DNA of 63,132 bases, counting the filler. It is 7 parts of 7 records of this genome, joined end to end, with 100 filler letters (N's around TTAATTAATTAA, not from the genome) between each part and the next. Parts side by side here need not be neighbours in the genome. Positions count along the whole stretch, not along the records: positions 36,320 to 49,823 come from SRR31156797_18820; 6 more parts are not named here. One strand, 5' to 3'. The notes under the pieces were generated by a model. It searched no databases. It was not told where the DNA came from and saw only the letters and a program-made list of their open reading frames with translations. A program made the translations under genes and the position numbers. This document shows positions 10,952-57,851 of this stretch, piece by piece (position 1 is the first letter of the stretch; each line of letters starts with the position of its first letter).

Positions 10952-11051
10952 NNNNNNNNNNNNNNNNNNNNNNNNNNNNNNNNNNNNNNNNNNNNTTAAT
11001 TAATTAANNNNNNNNNNNNNNNNNNNNNNNNNNNNNNNNNNNNNNNNNNNN
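10952..11051. other. Artificial contig linker (Ns + TTAATTAATTAA)
   Basis: 100-bp N spacer with six-frame stop; composition and gene content change across it. Confidence 0.99.
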
Positions 11052-18778: not shown

Positions 18779-18878
18779 NNNNNNNNNNNNNNNNNNNNNN
18801 NNNNNNNNNNNNNNNNNNNNNNTTAATTAATTAANNNNNNNNNNNNNNNNNNNNNNNNNNNNNNNNNNNNNNNNNNNN
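18779..18878. other. Artificial contig linker
   Basis: Ns + TTAATTAATTAA. Confidence 0.99.
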
Positions 18879-29510: not shown

Positions 29511-29610
29511 NNNNNNNNNNNNNNNNNNNNNNNNNNNNNNNNNNNNNNNNNNNNTTAATTAATTAANNNNNNNNNNNNNNNNNNNNNNNNNNNNNNNNNN
29601 NNNNNNNNNN
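29511..29610. other. Artificial contig linker
   Basis: Ns + TTAATTAATTAA. Confidence 0.99.
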
Positions 29611-36219: not shown

Positions 36220-36319
36220 NNNNNNNNNNNNNNNNNNNNNNNNNNNNNNNNNNNNNNNNNNNNTTAATTAATTAANNNNNNNNNNNNNNNNNNNNNNNNN
36301 NNNNNNNNNNNNNNNNNNN
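36220..36319. other. Artificial contig linker
   Basis: Ns + TTAATTAATTAA. Confidence 0.99.
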
Positions 36320-36416: not shown

Positions 36417-37803
<1,387 letters not shown>

Positions 37804-38394
37804 ATGGGCCGTGTCGGCTTAGCTTTATATTTGATTCTGGCCCTGTCAGTTGGGGTCTGTGCCGGAACCTTGCTTGGGAAGAAGTACGGAACTTTTCCGC
37901 ATATGGCCCGTGGTCCGGTGGAAAATCCGTTGGTTGCCCATAAGAACCAATCCGATATCTCCGCTGAGGAGATTGAGTTGATTCAGGGCACTGGTGGCGA
38001 CATCGAATGGATTTTGCGGGCCGGAAGTGCTGATTACGATCAGGAAAAAGGGTTGGTCATTGCTGACAAGCCCCGGGTTACATATTATCTTGGCCGGGAC
38101 CGCAAGGAAGTTTTTGTCAGTGCCTTGCATGGTGAAGTCAGCCAGAAGGGTGAAGGTCTCAAGCTCTGGGATAATGTTAAAGGACATTATGGTGATATGG
38201 GGCTCCTGGCTGACCGCCTTGATTTTAAGCCCAAGGACAATCTGCTTTTCCTTGAAGGGAATGTAAGGGTGCAGAGTCCTGCTGTTTATATAACTTCCAA
38301 GCGGGTCAAGGTGGACCTTGTCACCCGTGAAATTATGATTGAAGACGGAATGGAAGCCCTGATTTCACCGGACATGGTGGTAATGCCTCAATAG
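37804..38394 (+). CDS. lptC: LPS export protein LptC
   Basis: N-terminal TM anchor, beta-jellyroll-like sequence, position between kdsC and lptA. Confidence 0.8.
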   Translation: MGRVGLALYLILALSVGVCAGTLLGKKYGTFPHMARGPVENPLVAHKNQSDISAEEIELIQGTGGDIEWILRAGSADYDQEKGLVIADKPRVTYYLGRDRKEVFVSALHGEVSQKGEGLKLWDNVKGHYGDMGLLADRLDFKPKDNLLFLEGNVRVQSPAVYITSKRVKVDLVTREIMIEDGMEALISPDMVVMPQ

Positions 38395-38408: not shown

Positions 38409-40034
38409 TTGATTAATATATCTGAAAATAGTTCATTGTTGCGCGGTAGGTCCGTATTTGCGTCGTTTTCTCCCGCCATTGTCTGCGCGGTATTTTTCTT
38501 TGCCTTTGTTTTGGCTGGTCCTGTTGCCCATGCCTACGATAAATCCGAGTTGAAAATTGCCCGGACCATTGCCAATGTTCGTTCCAAACCCGATCTTAAG
38601 GGAGAGGTTGTCTGGGTTCTTTCTCCGGCGGAAAGCTTTCTGGTCGGCAAGGCCCAGGGTAGCTGGTTTCCGGTCTATCCCGTTTCCGCAAAAAAGGGTG
38701 CCGACCCTGTGGGCTATATTTCTCGAAAGGTTGTAGTTCCCGCTGCGGCAGACAGTCCTATGGCGGACTGGGCTGATATCCGTTATGTGGGTAAGGATTT
38801 GAAGTTCCATCTTGAGCGGACAGTGAAGTCTTCAACTGGCGGGATGATCAAGTCTGGTGATAAGATCAAAGTCGGTTTTCTCAAAGATGGCTGGTATGCA
38901 ATTTTCAACGCTGACGCTCTGGTAACTTCCGAGGCTGATGCTCTTGGTTATGTTAAAAAGGATGATGTGGATATCGTTTTGGATGATGCCCGTATCCGGT
39001 ATGCTGTTCGTAAAATTAATGTGATTGAAAAACCTGTGGCCACATCAAGGGCTGTAGGCGTACTCAGTCCCGGACACCGCGCGCAGGTGGGGGCAGAAAA
39101 GGGTGGTATGTATGCCCTTTATCGCGTTGATACCATGGTTAAAGATGACACTCCGGTCTGGGGTTATGCCTGGGGGCCTTTTCTTGCTCCTTATCCTAAA
39201 AATCTGGAAAAAGCTCAGATGGCCGGGATAGATGCCCGTAAAGCTGAGCTCAAGGCTGAAGAGGGGCGTAAGGCAAAGGCGGAAGTTAAGAGAGGCAGTG
39301 AGCTGGCCGCTATGGAAGAAGCCATGGATGAGATGTTGATGGCTCCGGTACAGACCAAGACCCTTTATGCTACTGCAGTGCTTAATATTCGCTCTGAACC
39401 TAACGCAAAGTCTTTGATCGTAGGTAAGCTTGAACTCGGAGAAGCTGTTAGCGTGGGTCAGGAAGAAGGCAAATGGTATCCTGTTTTCAAGTCGGGTAAA
39501 GATAAAGAGCTTAAGCGGGTGGGGTATGTTTTCGGTACTTATCTTAAAGCTGAAGCACCGGTCATTGAAAAGGAAAAACCGCGTAAAAAACGAGCCTCCG
39601 GCGGTCCCGATGAAGTGCCCATTAAGATTACCTCCACCAAGATGACTTTCAGCGAGAATCGTAACCGGATTACCTTTGCCGGTAATGTTAAGGTCGTGCG
39701 TCTTGATGTGACCCTTACTTCCGATACCTTGACTGCGCATCTGAGACCCGAGGGCGATTCTCTTTCCGATACTCAGGACAAGATTAAGAAGATCGTGGCC
39801 GGGGGTAATGTCAAAGTAGTCATGAAGAAGCGTAAAGGCCATTGTGACAAGCTGACCTATGTTGTGGGGGATTCCATCATTTATATGAATGGCAATGCAG
39901 AATTACAGGATGGTCCCAACCTTATTCAGGGGGATGAGATTAAATTTTACCTGAAGGATAACCGTGCTGAGGTCGTTGGCGGCAATAAGCCTATTGAGGC
40001 TATTTTCTACACCCCCAAAAATGTTTCTCCTTAG
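38409..40034 (+). CDS. lptA: LptA/OstA domain protein with four N-terminal SH3b-like domains
   Basis: C-terminal PIKITS...FAGNVKV...IVAGGNVKV...IQGDEIKFYL; repeated NVRSKP/NIRSEP...W..V...GY segments; lptC-lptA-lptB synteny. Confidence 0.82.
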   Translation: MINISENSSLLRGRSVFASFSPAIVCAVFFFAFVLAGPVAHAYDKSELKIARTIANVRSKPDLKGEVVWVLSPAESFLVGKAQGSWFPVYPVSAKKGADPVGYISRKVVVPAAADSPMADWADIRYVGKDLKFHLERTVKSSTGGMIKSGDKIKVGFLKDGWYAIFNADALVTSEADALGYVKKDDVDIVLDDARIRYAVRKINVIEKPVATSRAVGVLSPGHRAQVGAEKGGMYALYRVDTMVKDDTPVWGYAWGPFLAPYPKNLEKAQMAGIDARKAELKAEEGRKAKAEVKRGSELAAMEEAMDEMLMAPVQTKTLYATAVLNIRSEPNAKSLIVGKLELGEAVSVGQEEGKWYPVFKSGKDKELKRVGYVFGTYLKAEAPVIEKEKPRKKRASGGPDEVPIKITSTKMTFSENRNRITFAGNVKVVRLDVTLTSDTLTAHLRPEGDSLSDTQDKIKKIVAGGNVKVVMKKRKGHCDKLTYVVGDSIIYMNGNAELQDGPNLIQGDEIKFYLKDNRAEVVGGNKPIEAIFYTPKNVSP

Positions 40035-40064: not shown

Positions 40065-40787
40065 ATGTCTTCGATTATCGCCAAAAAACTGGTCAAAAAT
40101 TATGGGCCTAAAGAGGTTGTCCGTGGAATCGGGCTGACTGTGCGCGAGGGCGAGGTTGTGGGACTGCTCGGCCCAAACGGGGCCGGCAAGACTACAACAT
40201 TTTACATGCTTGTAGGCGTAGTTAAGCCCACGTTCGGGGACGTTTATTTCAATAAACAGCCGATCACTACGTTGCCCCTGCATGAACGGGCGCGTTTGGG
40301 GCTTAGTTATCTACCGCAGGAAAGTTCCATTTTTAAAAAGCTCTCCGTGCGTAAGAATCTTGAGATTATCATCGAGCACACCGGGCTTTCCGGTAAAGAT
40401 GTACCTAAAAGAGCGGACGAGTTGCTGGATCAGCTTGGCATTCTCCGTCTTGCGGACCAAAAGGCTATGTATCTTTCCGGTGGTGAACGCCGCAGGCTTG
40501 AGATTGCCCGGGCCATGATCAATAACCCTAAGTTCATCCTGCTTGATGAACCGTTTGCAGGTATCGACCCTATTGCGGTAATTGATATTCAGGATATTAT
40601 TTCCACGCTTAAAGATATGGGACTTGGTATTCTTATTTCCGACCATAACGTGCGTGAGACCCTTTCCATCTGTGACCGTGCTTATCTCGTTTATGAGGGC
40701 AGGGTGATTCTCAATGGTTCGCCGGAGAATATCGTGAAAAACACCAAGGCGCGCAGGCTTTATTTGGGAGATAGTTTTAGCCTGTAG
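40065..40787 (+). CDS. lptB: LPS export ABC transporter ATP-binding protein
   Basis: GPNGAGKTT, YLPQE, LSGGERRRLE, DEPFAGIDP, DHNVRET, YLG. Confidence 0.96.
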   Translation: MSSIIAKKLVKNYGPKEVVRGIGLTVREGEVVGLLGPNGAGKTTTFYMLVGVVKPTFGDVYFNKQPITTLPLHERARLGLSYLPQESSIFKKLSVRKNLEIIIEHTGLSGKDVPKRADELLDQLGILRLADQKAMYLSGGERRRLEIARAMINNPKFILLDEPFAGIDPIAVIDIQDIISTLKDMGLGILISDHNVRETLSICDRAYLVYEGRVILNGSPENIVKNTKARRLYLGDSFSL

Positions 40788-41120: not shown

Positions 41121-42536
41121 ATGGGGTTGGAACTTAGACAACAATTAAAGCTTACTCAACAGCTGGTAATGACTCCTCAGCTGCAGCAGGCGATCAAGTT
41201 GTTGCAGCTTTCCCGCTTGGAGCTGTTGGATTCCGTCCATCAGGAACTCATGGAGAATCCTATCCTTGAAGAAGCTGAAGCACAGGAACGGACAGATTCT
41301 CCTGATGCTGACGCAGGCACCGCTACTGCCGAAGAAGCACAAATTTCAAAGGAAGCCGAGTGGGAAAACTATCTCGGTGAATTTTCCAGCACATCAAAGC
41401 AGTCCGCTTCCCGCGAGTCTGAATCATATGAAGAAGGGACTTCTTTTGAAGCCCGTCTGACCAAGTCAGCATCTCTTGAAGGACATCTGCATTGGCAGAT
41501 GAGCCTCTCCGATTTTACCGAGGAAGAAAAGGTCATCGGCGAATGCCTTATGGGTAATTTGAGTTCAGGAGGTTTTTTACGGATAGACTTGGAAGATGTA
41601 TGTGAAACGTGCTATGCTGAAATCGAAGATGTAGAAAAGGTTTTACATCGTATCCAGCGATTTGATCCGGTAGGCGTGGCGGCAAGGACTCCGCAGGAAT
41701 GTCTGCTTATCCAGTTGGAAGCATTAAAGCTTGACGATGATCCAATTCTGGTTTCGCTGGTCCGGGATCATCTGGATGACCTTGAAAAGAAGCGTTATAA
41801 GCCTCTGGCAAGGAAGTTCAAGCTCAGCATGGAGGATTTGAAGAGTTATCTGGATTTGATGCAGACACTTGATCCCTTGCCCGGAGCAAGTTTTTCAAGC
41901 GGAGACTCTTTCTATGTCAGCCCTGATGCTTATGTTTATGAATATGACGGTGATTTTGTCATAGTTCTGAACGAAGATGGTCTTCCTAAATTGCAGATGA
42001 ATGCTTTTTATGTGGAGACCCTTGAATCAACCAAGGGAGATGACAAAGAATATTTTCAGGATAAGATGCGTTCCGCACAATGGCTGATGAAGAGCCTGTA
42101 TCAGCGGCAGCGTACCTTATATAAAGTTCTTGAATCCATAGTGAGATTTCAGCGCGATTTTTTCGCCCAAGGTGTCACCAAGTTAAAACCGCTTATTCTT
42201 AAGGAGGTTGCGGAAGACATCGAAATGCATGAATCCACTGTGAGCCGAATTACTACTAATAAGTATGTTTCTACTCCGCATGGAATCTATGAACTAAAAT
42301 TCTTTTTTAATAGTGCTCTCGGTCTGGATGACGGTTCTCAGGTCGGTTCCGAGTCCGTCAAGGCGACGATTAAGAAATTGATCGGTGAAGAAGACGGAAA
42401 GAAACCCCTCAGCGACGAAAAGATAGCTGAGATTCTCAAAGAGAAACTGGAAGTCAATATAGCCAGAAGGACCGTAGCTAAGTATAGGACTGCAATGGGG
42501 ATTCTCTCCTCATCCAAGAGGAAAAAGGTATTCTAA
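41121..42536 (+). CDS. rpoN: RNA polymerase sigma-54 factor
   Basis: MTPQLQQAIKLLQL, HESTVSR, RpoN box ARRTVAKYR. Confidence 0.98.
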   Translation: MGLELRQQLKLTQQLVMTPQLQQAIKLLQLSRLELLDSVHQELMENPILEEAEAQERTDSPDADAGTATAEEAQISKEAEWENYLGEFSSTSKQSASRESESYEEGTSFEARLTKSASLEGHLHWQMSLSDFTEEEKVIGECLMGNLSSGGFLRIDLEDVCETCYAEIEDVEKVLHRIQRFDPVGVAARTPQECLLIQLEALKLDDDPILVSLVRDHLDDLEKKRYKPLARKFKLSMEDLKSYLDLMQTLDPLPGASFSSGDSFYVSPDAYVYEYDGDFVIVLNEDGLPKLQMNAFYVETLESTKGDDKEYFQDKMRSAQWLMKSLYQRQRTLYKVLESIVRFQRDFFAQGVTKLKPLILKEVAEDIEMHESTVSRITTNKYVSTPHGIYELKFFFNSALGLDDGSQVGSESVKATIKKLIGEEDGKKPLSDEKIAEILKEKLEVNIARRTVAKYRTAMGILSSSKRKKVF

Positions 42537-42587
42537 TGTAGTCCGGAGAAATCAAAGCATATTCACCCTTTACTAAGGAGGCTCTTT

Positions 42588-43124
42588 ATGAACGTAGCAT
42601 TTACTTTTAAGAATTTCGACGCATCCGAACATCTTAAGGAATATGCGAACAGCCGTTTCTCCAAGTTGGTAAAGTACGTTAGCAATCCCGATAACACTGA
42701 TATGCAGGTGAATCTGTCAGTTGATAAGTTCAGGCATGTTGCGGAAGTTGTTTTCAGCTCTGATCATCTTCATGTCTCAGCTTACGAAGTGTCCGAGGAC
42801 ATGTATTCCACCGTGGATATGGTTCTGGACAAGCTTGAAGCCCAGCTTCGCCGCGCAAATGAAAAGATGAGAAGCCATAGGCGTAAGGAGGCAGCTCCTG
42901 CCCGTATGGATATTCTCAGCTACGGAGAGGAACAGTACAGAGAGCCTGTGATTGTGGAATCCGACTCTTTTGTTCCTAAGCCCATGAGTGTTGATGAAGC
43001 TGCTGAACAGCTTCAGACCCTCGACCATGAATTCCTCGTATTTCGTAACGCGGATAACGAAGCCATAAACGTAATATACCGCCGCAATAACGGCGACTTC
43101 GGTTTAATTGACCCAGGATACTAA
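42588..43124 (+). CDS. hpf: Ribosome hibernation promoting factor, long form
   Basis: DMYSTVD, KPMSVDEAA, VIYRRNNGDFGLI; follows rpoN. Confidence 0.92.
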   Translation: MNVAFTFKNFDASEHLKEYANSRFSKLVKYVSNPDNTDMQVNLSVDKFRHVAEVVFSSDHLHVSAYEVSEDMYSTVDMVLDKLEAQLRRANEKMRSHRRKEAAPARMDILSYGEEQYREPVIVESDSFVPKPMSVDEAAEQLQTLDHEFLVFRNADNEAINVIYRRNNGDFGLIDPGY

Positions 43125-43127
43125 CTG

Positions 43128-43577
43128 ATGAATATAACTGATAATCTGGCGAAGGATCTTGTTGTTCATGAACTGCAGGCCTCTGATAAGAGTGAAGTTC
43201 TGAAAGAAATGGTTTCCACCCTAAAGGACGCAGGTCTGGAAGTGGATGTGGAAAATGCCTTAAAGGTCCTTAATGATCGTGAAAAACTTGGAACAACCGG
43301 AATCGGGGATGGCATAGCTATCCCCCACGGTAAACTGGAATGTCTTGAAGAGATTGTAGTGGTCGTCGGCCGATCAAGTGAGGGAGTCGATTTCGAATCT
43401 CTGGACATGCAGCCATGTAAGATATTCTTTATGGTACTGGCCCCCGAGCAGGGGGCCGGTGCTCATTTGAAGGTGCTGGCGCAGATTTCCCGGCAACTTA
43501 AAGATGAAGCATTTCGGCAGGCATTTATAGAGACAGAGGACAAGCAGGAATTGCTTAAACTCCTCGGTCTCAGCTAG
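43128..43577 (+). CDS. ptsN: PTS IIA(Ntr)-type protein
   Basis: REKLGTTGIGDGIAIPHG, HLKVLAQISR. Confidence 0.92.
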   Translation: MNITDNLAKDLVVHELQASDKSEVLKEMVSTLKDAGLEVDVENALKVLNDREKLGTTGIGDGIAIPHGKLECLEEIVVVVGRSSEGVDFESLDMQPCKIFFMVLAPEQGAGAHLKVLAQISRQLKDEAFRQAFIETEDKQELLKLLGLS

Positions 43578-43652
43578 AGCCGGATTTTTTCAAATTATTG
43601 AAAGTTAGATTAGCAATGAACTTGGGTCATTGCTAATTTTGTTTGTAGGCTA

Positions 43653-44555
43653 TTGCGCAAGGAGGATGTTGGGGTGGTCGATGTAGATTCCTTTCCTGTT
43701 ATTGTTGTGAGCGGTCTTTCCGGGGCCGGTAAATCTACTGTTCTGAAGGTTTTTGAGGATCTGCGTTTTTTCTGTGTGGATGGACTGCCAGCTAGTATGC
43801 TTCCGCGTTTGGTCGAACTGTTTAATACCCGTGACAATGCTTATCGTGGTTTGGTGCTGGGCATGGATCTACGCCAGTTGGAATTCAGCGTCGACTGGGA
43901 GGCTACCCGTGAAGAACTTACATCCAAGGGATATCGCCCAAGTATTCTTTATCTTGAAGCCCGGTTGCCGGAGCTTGTACGCAGATATGCTACTACCCGC
44001 CGCTTGCATCCTCTCGAATCCAAGAATATAGGATTGGAGCAAGCGCTTGAAAAAGAGAAGGAAGCTCTTGGCGAAGTTCGTCAGCAGGCCGATTTGGTTA
44101 TTGATACGACGACTTACTCAATTCATGATCTGCGTCGTCGAATTCAGGAAAAATGGGCAGAGCTTAGTGAAAAGACGCGTGGATTGCGCGTGCATGTTAT
44201 GTCTTTTGGCTTTAAGCACGATGTTCCAACCGCAGCGGATATGGTCATGGACCTCCGTTTTTTGCCTAATCCATATTTCGAAGAAGAGCTCCGTCCGCTT
44301 TCCGGTCAGGATAAAGCTATTTCAGATTATGTTTTAGGTACCGAACCGGGCTCAATTTTTATTGAGAAATATCTCGATTTCCTTCAATATGTCCTTCCTC
44401 TTTACGAGGCGGAAGGAAGATACAGGCTAACCATTGCCGTAGGTTGTACCGGCGGACGCCATCGCTCCGTTGCCACGGCTGAAAGGATATTTGCAACTCT
44501 TAAAGATAATGGTTATTCTGTCTCACTTGAGCATAAGCACATTCATTTGAAATAG
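43653..44555 (+). CDS. rapZ: RNase adapter / P-loop protein RapZ
   Basis: GLSGAGKS, TTRRLHP, SFGFK, RFLPNP, GCTGGRHRSV; start may be the GTG at 43674. Confidence 0.95.
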   Translation: MRKEDVGVVDVDSFPVIVVSGLSGAGKSTVLKVFEDLRFFCVDGLPASMLPRLVELFNTRDNAYRGLVLGMDLRQLEFSVDWEATREELTSKGYRPSILYLEARLPELVRRYATTRRLHPLESKNIGLEQALEKEKEALGEVRQQADLVIDTTTYSIHDLRRRIQEKWAELSEKTRGLRVHVMSFGFKHDVPTAADMVMDLRFLPNPYFEEELRPLSGQDKAISDYVLGTEPGSIFIEKYLDFLQYVLPLYEAEGRYRLTIAVGCTGGRHRSVATAERIFATLKDNGYSVSLEHKHIHLK

Positions 44556-49823: not shown

Positions 49824-49923
49824 NNNNNNNNNNNNNNNNNNNNNNNNNNNNNNNNNNNNNNNNNNNNTTAATTAATTAANNNNNNNNNNNNNNNNNNNNN
49901 NNNNNNNNNNNNNNNNNNNNNNN
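49824..49923. other. Artificial contig linker
   Basis: Ns + TTAATTAATTAA. Confidence 0.99.
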
Positions 49924-57751: not shown

Positions 57752-57851
57752 NNNNNNNNNNNNNNNNNNNNNNNNNNNNNNNNNNNNNNNNNNNNTTAAT
57801 TAATTAANNNNNNNNNNNNNNNNNNNNNNNNNNNNNNNNNNNNNNNNNNNN
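57752..57851. other. Artificial contig linker
   Basis: Ns + TTAATTAATTAA. Confidence 0.99.

Follow-up and report, generated by a model that had tools for sequence, protein, structure and literature searches.

LptA proteins with an N-terminal arm of SH3b-like repeats in the Desulfovibrionaceae

Gene and domain architecture

The window analysed here, a stretch of 63,132 nucleotides made up of seven joined contigs, carries at positions 38409–40034 (+) a gene for a 541-residue protein in which an LptA/OstA beta-jellyroll is preceded by a long arm of SH3b-like repeats. The gene, which we refer to as SH3b-LptA, has a TTG start in the list of open reading frames (ORFs), runs for 541 codons plus a stop, and was identified from Pfam and NCBIfam matches and from its homologues. 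It fills the lptA slot of a classical lptC-lptA-lptB-rpoN cluster, and the ORF list and Pfam confirm what a first-pass annotation of the sequence had read at this site, namely a gene for 541 amino acids with those for LptC and LptB as neighbours. That annotation had also proposed an order of three SH3b-like repeats, a charged helix and a fourth repeat, and had confined the LptA domain to the last 140 or so residues.

The jellyroll occupies residues 403–541 (39615–40031, +). The Pfam family LptD_N/LptA (PF03968) matched the whole protein at residues 406–518 (E 1.4e-16, 61.2 bits against a cut-off of 20.4), the LptA family TIGR03002 aligned to residues 402–534 with 61.1 bits, and a Foldseek search of the PDB returned E. 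coli LptA as its top match (2r19 and 2r1a, with target template modelling (TM) scores of 0.76–0.80 and E-values from 5e-9 to 4e-7). These matches, to which the LptC complex model described below can be added, uphold the placing of an LptA/OstA jellyroll in the C-terminal 140 residues. The profile scan, a check that the first-pass annotation had itself proposed, also matched the SH3 families to the whole protein: SH3_3 (PF08239) gave an E-value of 1.1e-15 and 58 bits against a cut-off of 27, in two stretches of which the best lies at residues 324–380, and SH3_4 matched as well.

The polypeptide begins with a predicted signal peptide (residues 1–42, 38409–38534, +), called by eye from the translation and from an AlphaFold2 helix rather than by a dedicated predictor, with a hydrophobic helix at residues 16–36 and the motif A-H-A before Y43; it is the least conserved part of the protein, with a mean identity of 0.35. 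Repeat 1 follows at residues 44–115 (38538–38753, +) with predicted strands within 48–111 and a block confidence, measured by the predicted local distance difference test (pLDDT), of about 64–87. Repeat 2 (residues 116–192, 38754–38984, +; block pLDDT 70–85) was recognised by hhalign and by a subfamily alignment, A5, and shows a recurring motif, W-G-E-I-R ... K-V-D-F-L-x-D-G-W-Y-A-V-F ... A-L-G-Y, that marks the type of repeat present in the one- and two-repeat LptA proteins of other genera. Repeat 3 (residues 193–265, 38985–39203, +) is the best conserved of the four, with a mean pairwise identity of 0.83. A charged helix rich in Glu, Lys and Ala (residues 266–311, 39204–39341, +; 47 residues at 264–310 in the AlphaFold2 model) separates it from repeat 4 (residues 312–382, 39342–39554, +; block pLDDT about 65–83), and a short basic linker rich in Lys and Pro (residues 383–402, 39555–39614, +), with an isoelectric point of 9.5 and a pLDDT below 50 at residues 387–403, leads into the jellyroll.

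When the repeats were scanned as separate pieces against SH3_3, only repeat 4 scored above the gathering score (40 bits, E 4.6e-10, with SH3_4 at E 2.7e-4), while repeat 1 (19.6 bits, E 1.1e-3) and repeat 3 (12.8 bits, E 0.14) fell below it and repeat 2 as a separate piece gave no Pfam match. Their kinship is clearer from profiles obtained by slicing the family alignment, A1, in four and comparing the slices by hhalign. All pairs were connected, with probabilities of 98.3% (repeats 1 and 4), 97.4% (2 and 4), 93.7% (3 and 4), 91.1% (1 and 3), 90.1% (2 and 3) and 86.7% (1 and 2), and E-values among the four ranged from 4e-6 to 2e-14; on these grounds the repeats are mutually homologous. In the subfamily of repeat 2, 17 of the 22 sequences in alignment A5 matched SH3_3 individually, and the A5 profile matched the two C-terminal SH3_3 domains of the endolysin 4krt (E 4.2e-7), with weaker further matches to 2krs and 2kq8.

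The AlphaFold2 model of the whole protein, built with a 24-row alignment, has a mean pLDDT of 66.8 and contains helices at residues 16–36 and 264–310, beta-domains at 48–111, 122–183 and 317–380, and the jellyroll at 406–523. Foldseek matched it not only to LptA but also to multi-SH3b proteins (9a7d, 4krt, 6biq/6bim and 4r0k/3npf), and repeats 1, 2 and 4 model as SH3-type barrels. The order proposed in the first-pass annotation is reproduced by Pfam, hhalign and AlphaFold2, and its expectation that the repeats would model as SH3 folds holds for these three; repeat 3 is recognised as SH3b-like by profile comparison and not by its model. Four SH3b-type repeats are, in our judgement, very probably present.

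The gene order around SH3b-LptA, as read from Pfam matches of the neighbours, is kdsA-kdsC-lptC-SH3b-LptA-lptB-rpoN-hpf-ptsN-rapZ. Immediately upstream, lptC (37804–38394, +) encodes 196 residues with an N-terminal membrane anchor (PF06835, E 4.2e-10; TIGR04409, 54 bits against a cut-off of 38), and it is preceded by a kdsA-like gene (DAHP_synth_1) and a kdsC-like gene for a HAD phosphatase (36441–37803, +), named from their families and position. Downstream lie an ABC ATPase gene (40065–40787, +; PF00005, E 2.2e-34), for which the name lptB is taken from its position, and then rpoN (sigma-54), hpf, ptsN (EIIA-2) and rapZ at 41121–44555 (+). Each joint between the contigs of the window consists of two runs of 44 N around a TTAATTAATTAA linker, and these spacers lie at 10952–11051, 18779–18878, 29511–29610, 36220–36319, 49824–49923 and 57752–57851. 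The content of guanine plus cytosine (GC) is about 25–29% just to the left of the SH3b-LptA contig (36320–49823) and about 42–55% elsewhere in the window. The contigs probably come from different organisms, so gene context across a spacer is meaningless.

Conservation and distribution among the Desulfovibrionaceae

A word-indexed search returned 26 homologues at 52–92% identity, comprising 24 full-length proteins of 496–550 amino acids from separate assemblies and two shorter fragments. The named homologues are mostly from Maridesulfovibrio and annotated as LptA, that of M. salexigens having 541 amino acids and 92% identity. An uninterrupted frame with lptC directly upstream was present in all seven genomic loci that were fetched, three of which are titled complete chromosomes or sequences. 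With one intact ORF here and at least 24 full-length homologues in independent assemblies, the mis-joining of two genes, raised in the first-pass annotation as something that would overturn its reading, did not come true. An internal start producing a short secreted LptA was also considered and rejected on inspection by eye, there being no second signal-like hydrophobic segment before the jellyroll. One full-length homologue at 86% identity (P0003) is labelled Marinifilum sp. JC120, a genus of the Bacteroidota; because all other named homologues are from the Desulfovibrionaceae, its assembly was probably either contaminated or given the wrong label.

In three complete related genomes the gene appears to be the sole lptA. 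Each of the three yielded exactly one PF03968 match (E<=0.01), which was the SH3b-LptA gene, and the protein's own jellyroll as a query (E<=1) again gave one match in each, the one in genome G001 being 99% identical over the domain; TIGR03002 as a query likewise found SH3b-LptA as the only match in G001. A separate canonical lptA, a further finding that the first-pass annotation had named as fatal to its reading, was therefore not found in these three genomes. LptD is present in all three (778 residues in G001, L047:580–2916, +) and provides the outer-membrane end of the transport machine; its LptA-docking end, to judge from the family matches, is divergent in the Maridesulfovibrio-type genomes.

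Selection was estimated by the Nei-Gojobori method from eight DNA sequences, with saturated pairs dropped and 13–27 of the 28 pairs kept per segment. The ratios of nonsynonymous to synonymous substitution rates (dN/dS), which are rough because dS exceeds 1 (saturated), were 0.46 for the signal peptide, 0.125 for repeat 1, 0.10 for repeat 2, 0.044 for repeat 3, 0.113 for the helix, 0.109 for repeat 4, 0.13 for the linker and 0.039 for the jellyroll. Every mature part of the protein is clearly under purifying selection, with repeat 3 held as tightly as the jellyroll.

To follow the architecture beyond its closest relatives, 151 Desulfovibrionaceae species genomes were searched with TIGR03002, which found a match in 115. 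Domain contents were then examined in 56 of these with hidden Markov models (HMMs) made from alignment A1: the 30 best-scoring loci, 25 with an open frame of at least 300 amino acids, and G001. The remaining 59 matching genomes have frames below 300 amino acids, among which a few of 230–280 amino acids could hide a one-repeat form. The survey, which the first-pass annotation had called for, found SH3b-LptA in 21 species of the 56 examined, with one, two or four repeats, and an ordinary short LptA in the other 35. Four repeats occur in G001, G011, G124 and G079, two in G046, G038, G101, G036, G049 and G140, and one in G130, G087, G021, G078, G007, G123, G039, G135, G026, G091 and G104. Open-frame length had been considered as a proxy for a long LptA and proved misleading: best-match frames of at least 300 amino acids occur in 39 genomes, and in GC-rich genomes most long frames are stop-free nonsense upstream of a short LptA with its own signal peptide. 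In G079 the four-repeat gene (L038, G079:C1:1223864-1227265, minus strand) carries a one-base frameshift in repeat 3, at the conserved motif W-G-Y-A-W-G / P-F-L-A, which could be a sequencing error or mark a pseudogene.

The one- and two-repeat forms that were located are themselves the LptA match of the TIGR03002 survey. Their head, of the repeat-2 type, begins at the mature N-terminus directly after the signal-peptide cleavage site and is joined to the jellyroll by an Ala/Pro-rich low-complexity linker of tens to about 180 residues. Outside the genus of the gene described here the head motif is kept at only 14–36% overall identity to its repeat. A profile search with the one- and two-repeat forms found 165 proteins at E<=1e-10, and the 120 listed are 264–404 amino acids long. 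Among the matches listed are proteins of Pseudodesulfovibrio (aespoeensis, pelocollis, cashew, sediminis, nedwellii, portus and others) and of Salidesulfovibrio onnuriiensis; all carry the name LptA or are labelled hypothetical, and for most of them PF03968 is the sole precomputed domain, the head being left unannotated. Pseudodesulfovibrio and Salidesulfovibrio have one repeat where Maridesulfovibrio has four. Desulfovibrio aminophilus has a 415-residue form with one SH3_3 match before the jellyroll in Pfam, and the ESM Atlas holds clusters of 55–72 members, 279–356 amino acids long, that are automatically named LptD_N plus SH3_3.

A maximum-likelihood tree was calculated for 61 distinct jellyroll domains, with duplicated loci and identical sequences removed and the 59 unexamined genomes not included. 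The four-repeat forms fall into a single clade with a support of 100/100, and a second clade (98/94) unites 32 of the 35 head-less forms; the one- and two-repeat forms are arranged as a grade. Mapped on this tree, the head-less label needs 2 changes against a mean of 20 when labels are shuffled, and none of 500 shuffles reached so small a number. Midpoint rooting places the root on a long branch, so that a head gained once and a head lost once are not told apart. In both cases the SH3b head would be an ancient trait passed on by vertical descent rather than a fusion that arose sporadically.

The same head on other envelope proteins and predicted docking on LptC

The repeat-2-type head is not confined to LptA. 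With the A5 profile, matches were obtained in all five genomes searched that have a headed LptA, which also served as positive control, and no match in five of five genomes with a head-less LptA. In four of the five SH3b-LptA genomes (G123, G038, G130 and G049) a second headed protein was found, and in G001 the same profile search found none. In this second protein a signal peptide is followed by two or three heads that start at the mature N-terminus, then by an Ala/Pro linker, and the C-terminus is formed by a conserved domain of about 110 amino acids; in all four genomes its gene lies directly downstream of skp/OmpH (L073:4074-5489 (+), L074:3110-4723 (+), L075:3548-5005 (+) and L076:3525-4562 (-)). 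For the C-terminal domain, a search of Pfam gave only the SH3_3 matches of the protein, and the Atlas only clusters labelled hypothetical protein.

A metagenomic protein of 696 amino acids (P0035) joins repeats like repeats 2 and 3 to a C-terminal outer-membrane beta-barrel of the family OMP_b-brl, and looks from its domains like an outer-membrane anchor with periplasmic SH3b domains. Because the head recurs on the skp-linked protein and on this barrel protein, it appears to behave as a targeting module that can be shared among proteins of envelope biogenesis. Just one further SH3_3 protein was detected in G001, encoded by an ORF at L042:46-1839 (-). It has 597 residues, begins like a lipoprotein, contains an SH3_3 match (two hits when the genome was scanned) and ends in a long region without an assigned family; a neighbouring gene looks UppS-like from its translation.

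LptC and LptA are a textbook pair that in E. coli associates head to tail, and such complexes have been solved. For SH3b-LptA, a complex was modelled between residues 35–196 of LptC and residues 312–541 of LptA, which comprise repeat 4, the linker and the jellyroll, alongside three controls. The median interaction prediction score from aligned errors (ipSAE) was 0.68 against 0.00 for the best control. Among 78 solved complexes 51 attained that mark, as did 2 of 108 mismatched pairs; at least 49% of the contacts agree between runs, and the pLDDT of the partner is at least 72. The confident interface lies between LptC 174–192 and LptA 401–417, and the pairs 185–407, 179–412 and 177–414 describe an antiparallel pairing of edge strands. 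No residue of repeat 4 lies in the LptC-LptA interface of this model.

The model speaks against a failure to bind LptC, which the first-pass annotation had listed among the outcomes contradicting it, although for such a textbook pair the result may reflect memory of, or likeness to, the solved LptC-LptA structures, and it shows likeness and not binding. In the model the arm departs by way of the flexible linker (residues 383–402), so the N-terminal fusion is sterically compatible with the canonical LptC-LptA joint.

Possible functions of the arm

Compared with E. coli LptA (YhbN; 2r19 and 2r1a) and P. aeruginosa LptH (4uu4), SH3b-LptA has the same jellyroll (Foldseek target TM scores 0.72–0.80), the same position between lptC and lptB and, as predicted here, the same edge-strand docking on LptC, at a sequence identity of 14–28% between its jellyroll and the solved LptA and LptH chains. 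Those chains are single-domain proteins of 131–143 residues, whereas here 360 further residues precede the jellyroll and, unlike in E. coli LptA, they sit on the very end that docks on LptC. The arm shares its SH3b fold and tandem arrangement with a group of SH3_3 hydrolases that includes the phiSM101 endolysin Psm (4krt), T. vaginalis NlpC (6biq/6bim), Bacteroides dipeptidyl-peptidase VI (4r0k/3npf) and B. subtilis YrvJ (model 9a7d). In the hydrolases the SH3 domains are joined to a wall-cutting enzyme, whereas the payload of SH3b-LptA is a lipid-transport jellyroll with no hydrolase, and its repeats 2 and 3, unlike the SH3_3 domains of the hydrolases, have diverged below the Pfam threshold. 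The DvLysin SH3b-NlpC/P60 enzymes (PMC4600125) are also among the wall hydrolases compared.

The forms of Pseudodesulfovibrio, Salidesulfovibrio and other Desulfovibrionaceae, annotated as LptA/OstA family protein, have the same head subfamily and the same order of head, spacer and jellyroll, and differ in being about 264–430 amino acids long with an Ala/Pro-rich disordered linker, against four repeats and a charged helix in the genus represented in the window. That linker resembles the Ala/Pro-rich hinge by which OmpA/Pal-type tethers join an envelope protein to a wall-binding module. The logic would be the same, with an SH3b fold in place of an OmpA_C-like one; wall binding is proven for OmpA/Pal and hypothetical for SH3b-LptA.

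We consider SH3b-LptA highly likely to be a working LptA, the middle, soluble piece of the bridge for lipopolysaccharide (LPS) formed by LptB2FGC, LptA and LptDE, and its homology and locus indicate that the jellyroll would carry LPS from LptC to LptD. Once the signal peptide had been removed, the first beta-strand of the jellyroll would pair with the last strand of LptC and its last strand presumably with LptD, and LPS would slide along the groove as it does in E. coli. The arm of three SH3b repeats, a helix of about 7 nm and a fourth SH3b domain would exit through the 20-residue linker at the LptC-LptA joint and would take no part in that joint. On a rough estimate from the model, 47 helical residues at 0.15 nm each give the 7 nm of the helix and the whole arm would span some 20 nm or more, so it could reach the wall or either membrane from the LptC-LptA joint.

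For the arm itself our tentative preference, by analogy with the nearest SH3b relatives, is a tether that binds peptidoglycan. The SH3b domains would bind stem peptides or glycan of a sacculus of the diaminopimelate (A2pm) type, LptA would be held at the wall, and the bridge would be coupled to it. The nearest solved relatives of the repeats, by both the A5 profile and Foldseek, are SH3_3 domains of cell-wall hydrolases. A more specific proposal, which we regard as rather speculative, is that the W-G-E-I-R-type head serves as a shared address tag, docking both LptA and the skp-linked protein onto the sacculus or another fixed landmark of the envelope.

Several observations count against a peptidoglycan-binding arm on a working LptA, or against parts of that reading. 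Ligands of SH3b domains also include proteins, metals and other glycans, and the isoelectric points of the repeats are mixed, from 5.2 to 9.8, with no hint of a binder of the anionic wall; over the repeats and 22 heads together they range from 4.7 to 10.0 without pattern and are uninformative on the ligand. Repeat 3 has no confident fold, its pLDDT being 29–60 in the whole protein and 43 on average when it was folded alone with the family alignment, which gave nothing usable for a fold search; a conserved domain that has no fold alone would fit one needing a protein partner equally well. The TIGR03002 score of 61.1 bits is below the equivalog cut-off of 71.7. That cut-off, however, is reached in only 22 of the 151 Desulfovibrionaceae genomes and missed in 129, although 115 have a match, so it is too strict for this family and no sign of a different function. 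The sole-copy status is known from three complete relatives and not from this organism's own genome, and in the three Maridesulfovibrio-type genomes PF03968 misses the N-terminal jellyroll of LptD, which PF04453 and LptD_2 do match, so that a very divergent second LptA could be missed too.

These points bear on the alternatives to different degrees. Possible, though on balance doubtful, is an arm that has a target other than peptidoglycan and acts as an assembly, avidity or regulatory module on an LptA that still works as such. Candidate partners would be a protein of the machinery for outer-membrane biogenesis, such as LptD/E, LptF/G, the beta-barrel assembly machinery (BAM) or clients of Skp, a sugar of LPS or O-antigen, or a second copy of the arm. 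The mixed isoelectric points would agree with this, as would a repeat 3 that is so constrained (dN/dS 0.044, identity 0.83) yet unfolded alone, as expected of an interface domain, and the same head stands on a protein encoded next to skp, a gene for a chaperone of outer-membrane proteins, where a shared protein or outer-membrane partner would fit as well as a shared wall site. Such a module is less easily reconciled with the wall-hydrolase SH3_3 domains as nearest solved relatives or with a complex model in which repeat 4, the sole repeat included, touches neither LptC nor the jellyroll. An arm with no specific ligand, serving as spacer, bulk or solubility element, for example by limiting uncontrolled head-to-tail polymerisation of LptA or by adapting it to the width of the periplasm, could account for the variation between genera in repeat number (1, 2 or 4) and linker type (Ala/Pro-rich coil or charged helix) and for the absence of an arm from one large clade within the family, to which 32 of the 35 head-less rows belong. 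We judge it unlikely in view of the purifying selection on every repeat (dN/dS 0.04–0.13), the retention of the head motif across genera despite such low overall identity, and the clustering of the trait on the LptA tree; neither the retention of an SH3b fold nor its reappearance on another protein would be expected of a mere spacer.

Two further explanations concern the identity of the gene rather than its arm. That it is a paralogue with another job, the true lptA lying elsewhere, draws on the low TIGR03002 score and on a search for lptA that did not cover the organism's own genome, but it is very improbable for a gene placed exactly between lptC and lptB, which is the only match to three different queries in the three complete related genomes, has its strongest constraint in the jellyroll and docks on LptC in the predicted complex. 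An artefact of assembly or annotation, in which two genes were wrongly joined, might be suspected from the chain of seven metagenomic contigs and from the gene split by a one-base frameshift in G079. It is already contradicted, and scarcely credible, given the same frame at all seven loci, three of them titled complete, the 541-residue M. salexigens protein at 92% identity, a single N-terminal signal peptide and no stop or frame change inside the ORF.

The peptidoglycan-binding tether remains the reading that we prefer, and its interest lies in the setting: a whole branch of cultivable sulfate reducers carries an arm of a binding type on its only detectable LptA, at the end that docks on LptC. 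We know of no Lpt component that touches the wall, and to our knowledge the placement of the Lpt bridge, its passage through the peptidoglycan mesh and its number of LptA units are not settled. If the arm binds peptidoglycan, these bacteria would represent a natural experiment in which the export of LPS has been tied to the cell wall, and if it binds something else it would point to a partner of outer-membrane biogenesis shared with the skp-linked protein. Were the head an address tag, LPS bridges would be built at the wall and mechanically coupled to it, at a wall-anchored assembly site that would be new for Lpt systems. For annotation, the head could be added to most one-repeat forms, in which it is at present unannotated.

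Full-text literature searches on LptA with SH3, Desulfovibrio, N-terminal extensions, binding of peptidoglycan by SH3b and the Lpt bridge, which excluded subscription-only papers and in which the broadest two were judged by their top results, found no paper on SH3b-LptA. The combination is new as a described system, while the architecture is already visible in automatic annotation, with hundreds alike. The first-pass annotation knew of no characterised example, and no published study was found; the architecture is nevertheless not as singular as it had suggested, being clade-wide in part of the Desulfovibrionaceae and automatically annotated as LptA.

Some other unusual arrangements of LptA domains were encountered. 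In G055 a frame of 341 amino acids (L022:901-1923, +), which matches LptC at residues 48–133 and LptA at 207–314 and whose branch in the tree is very long, could represent either a fusion of LptC with LptA or a read-through. A protein of 430 amino acids (P0049) has a sensor-type N-terminus, 4HB_MCP plus CZB, before its LptA domain, another of 489 amino acids (P0075) contains two LptA domains in one chain, and a third of 589 amino acids (P0113) combines LptC with two LptA domains.

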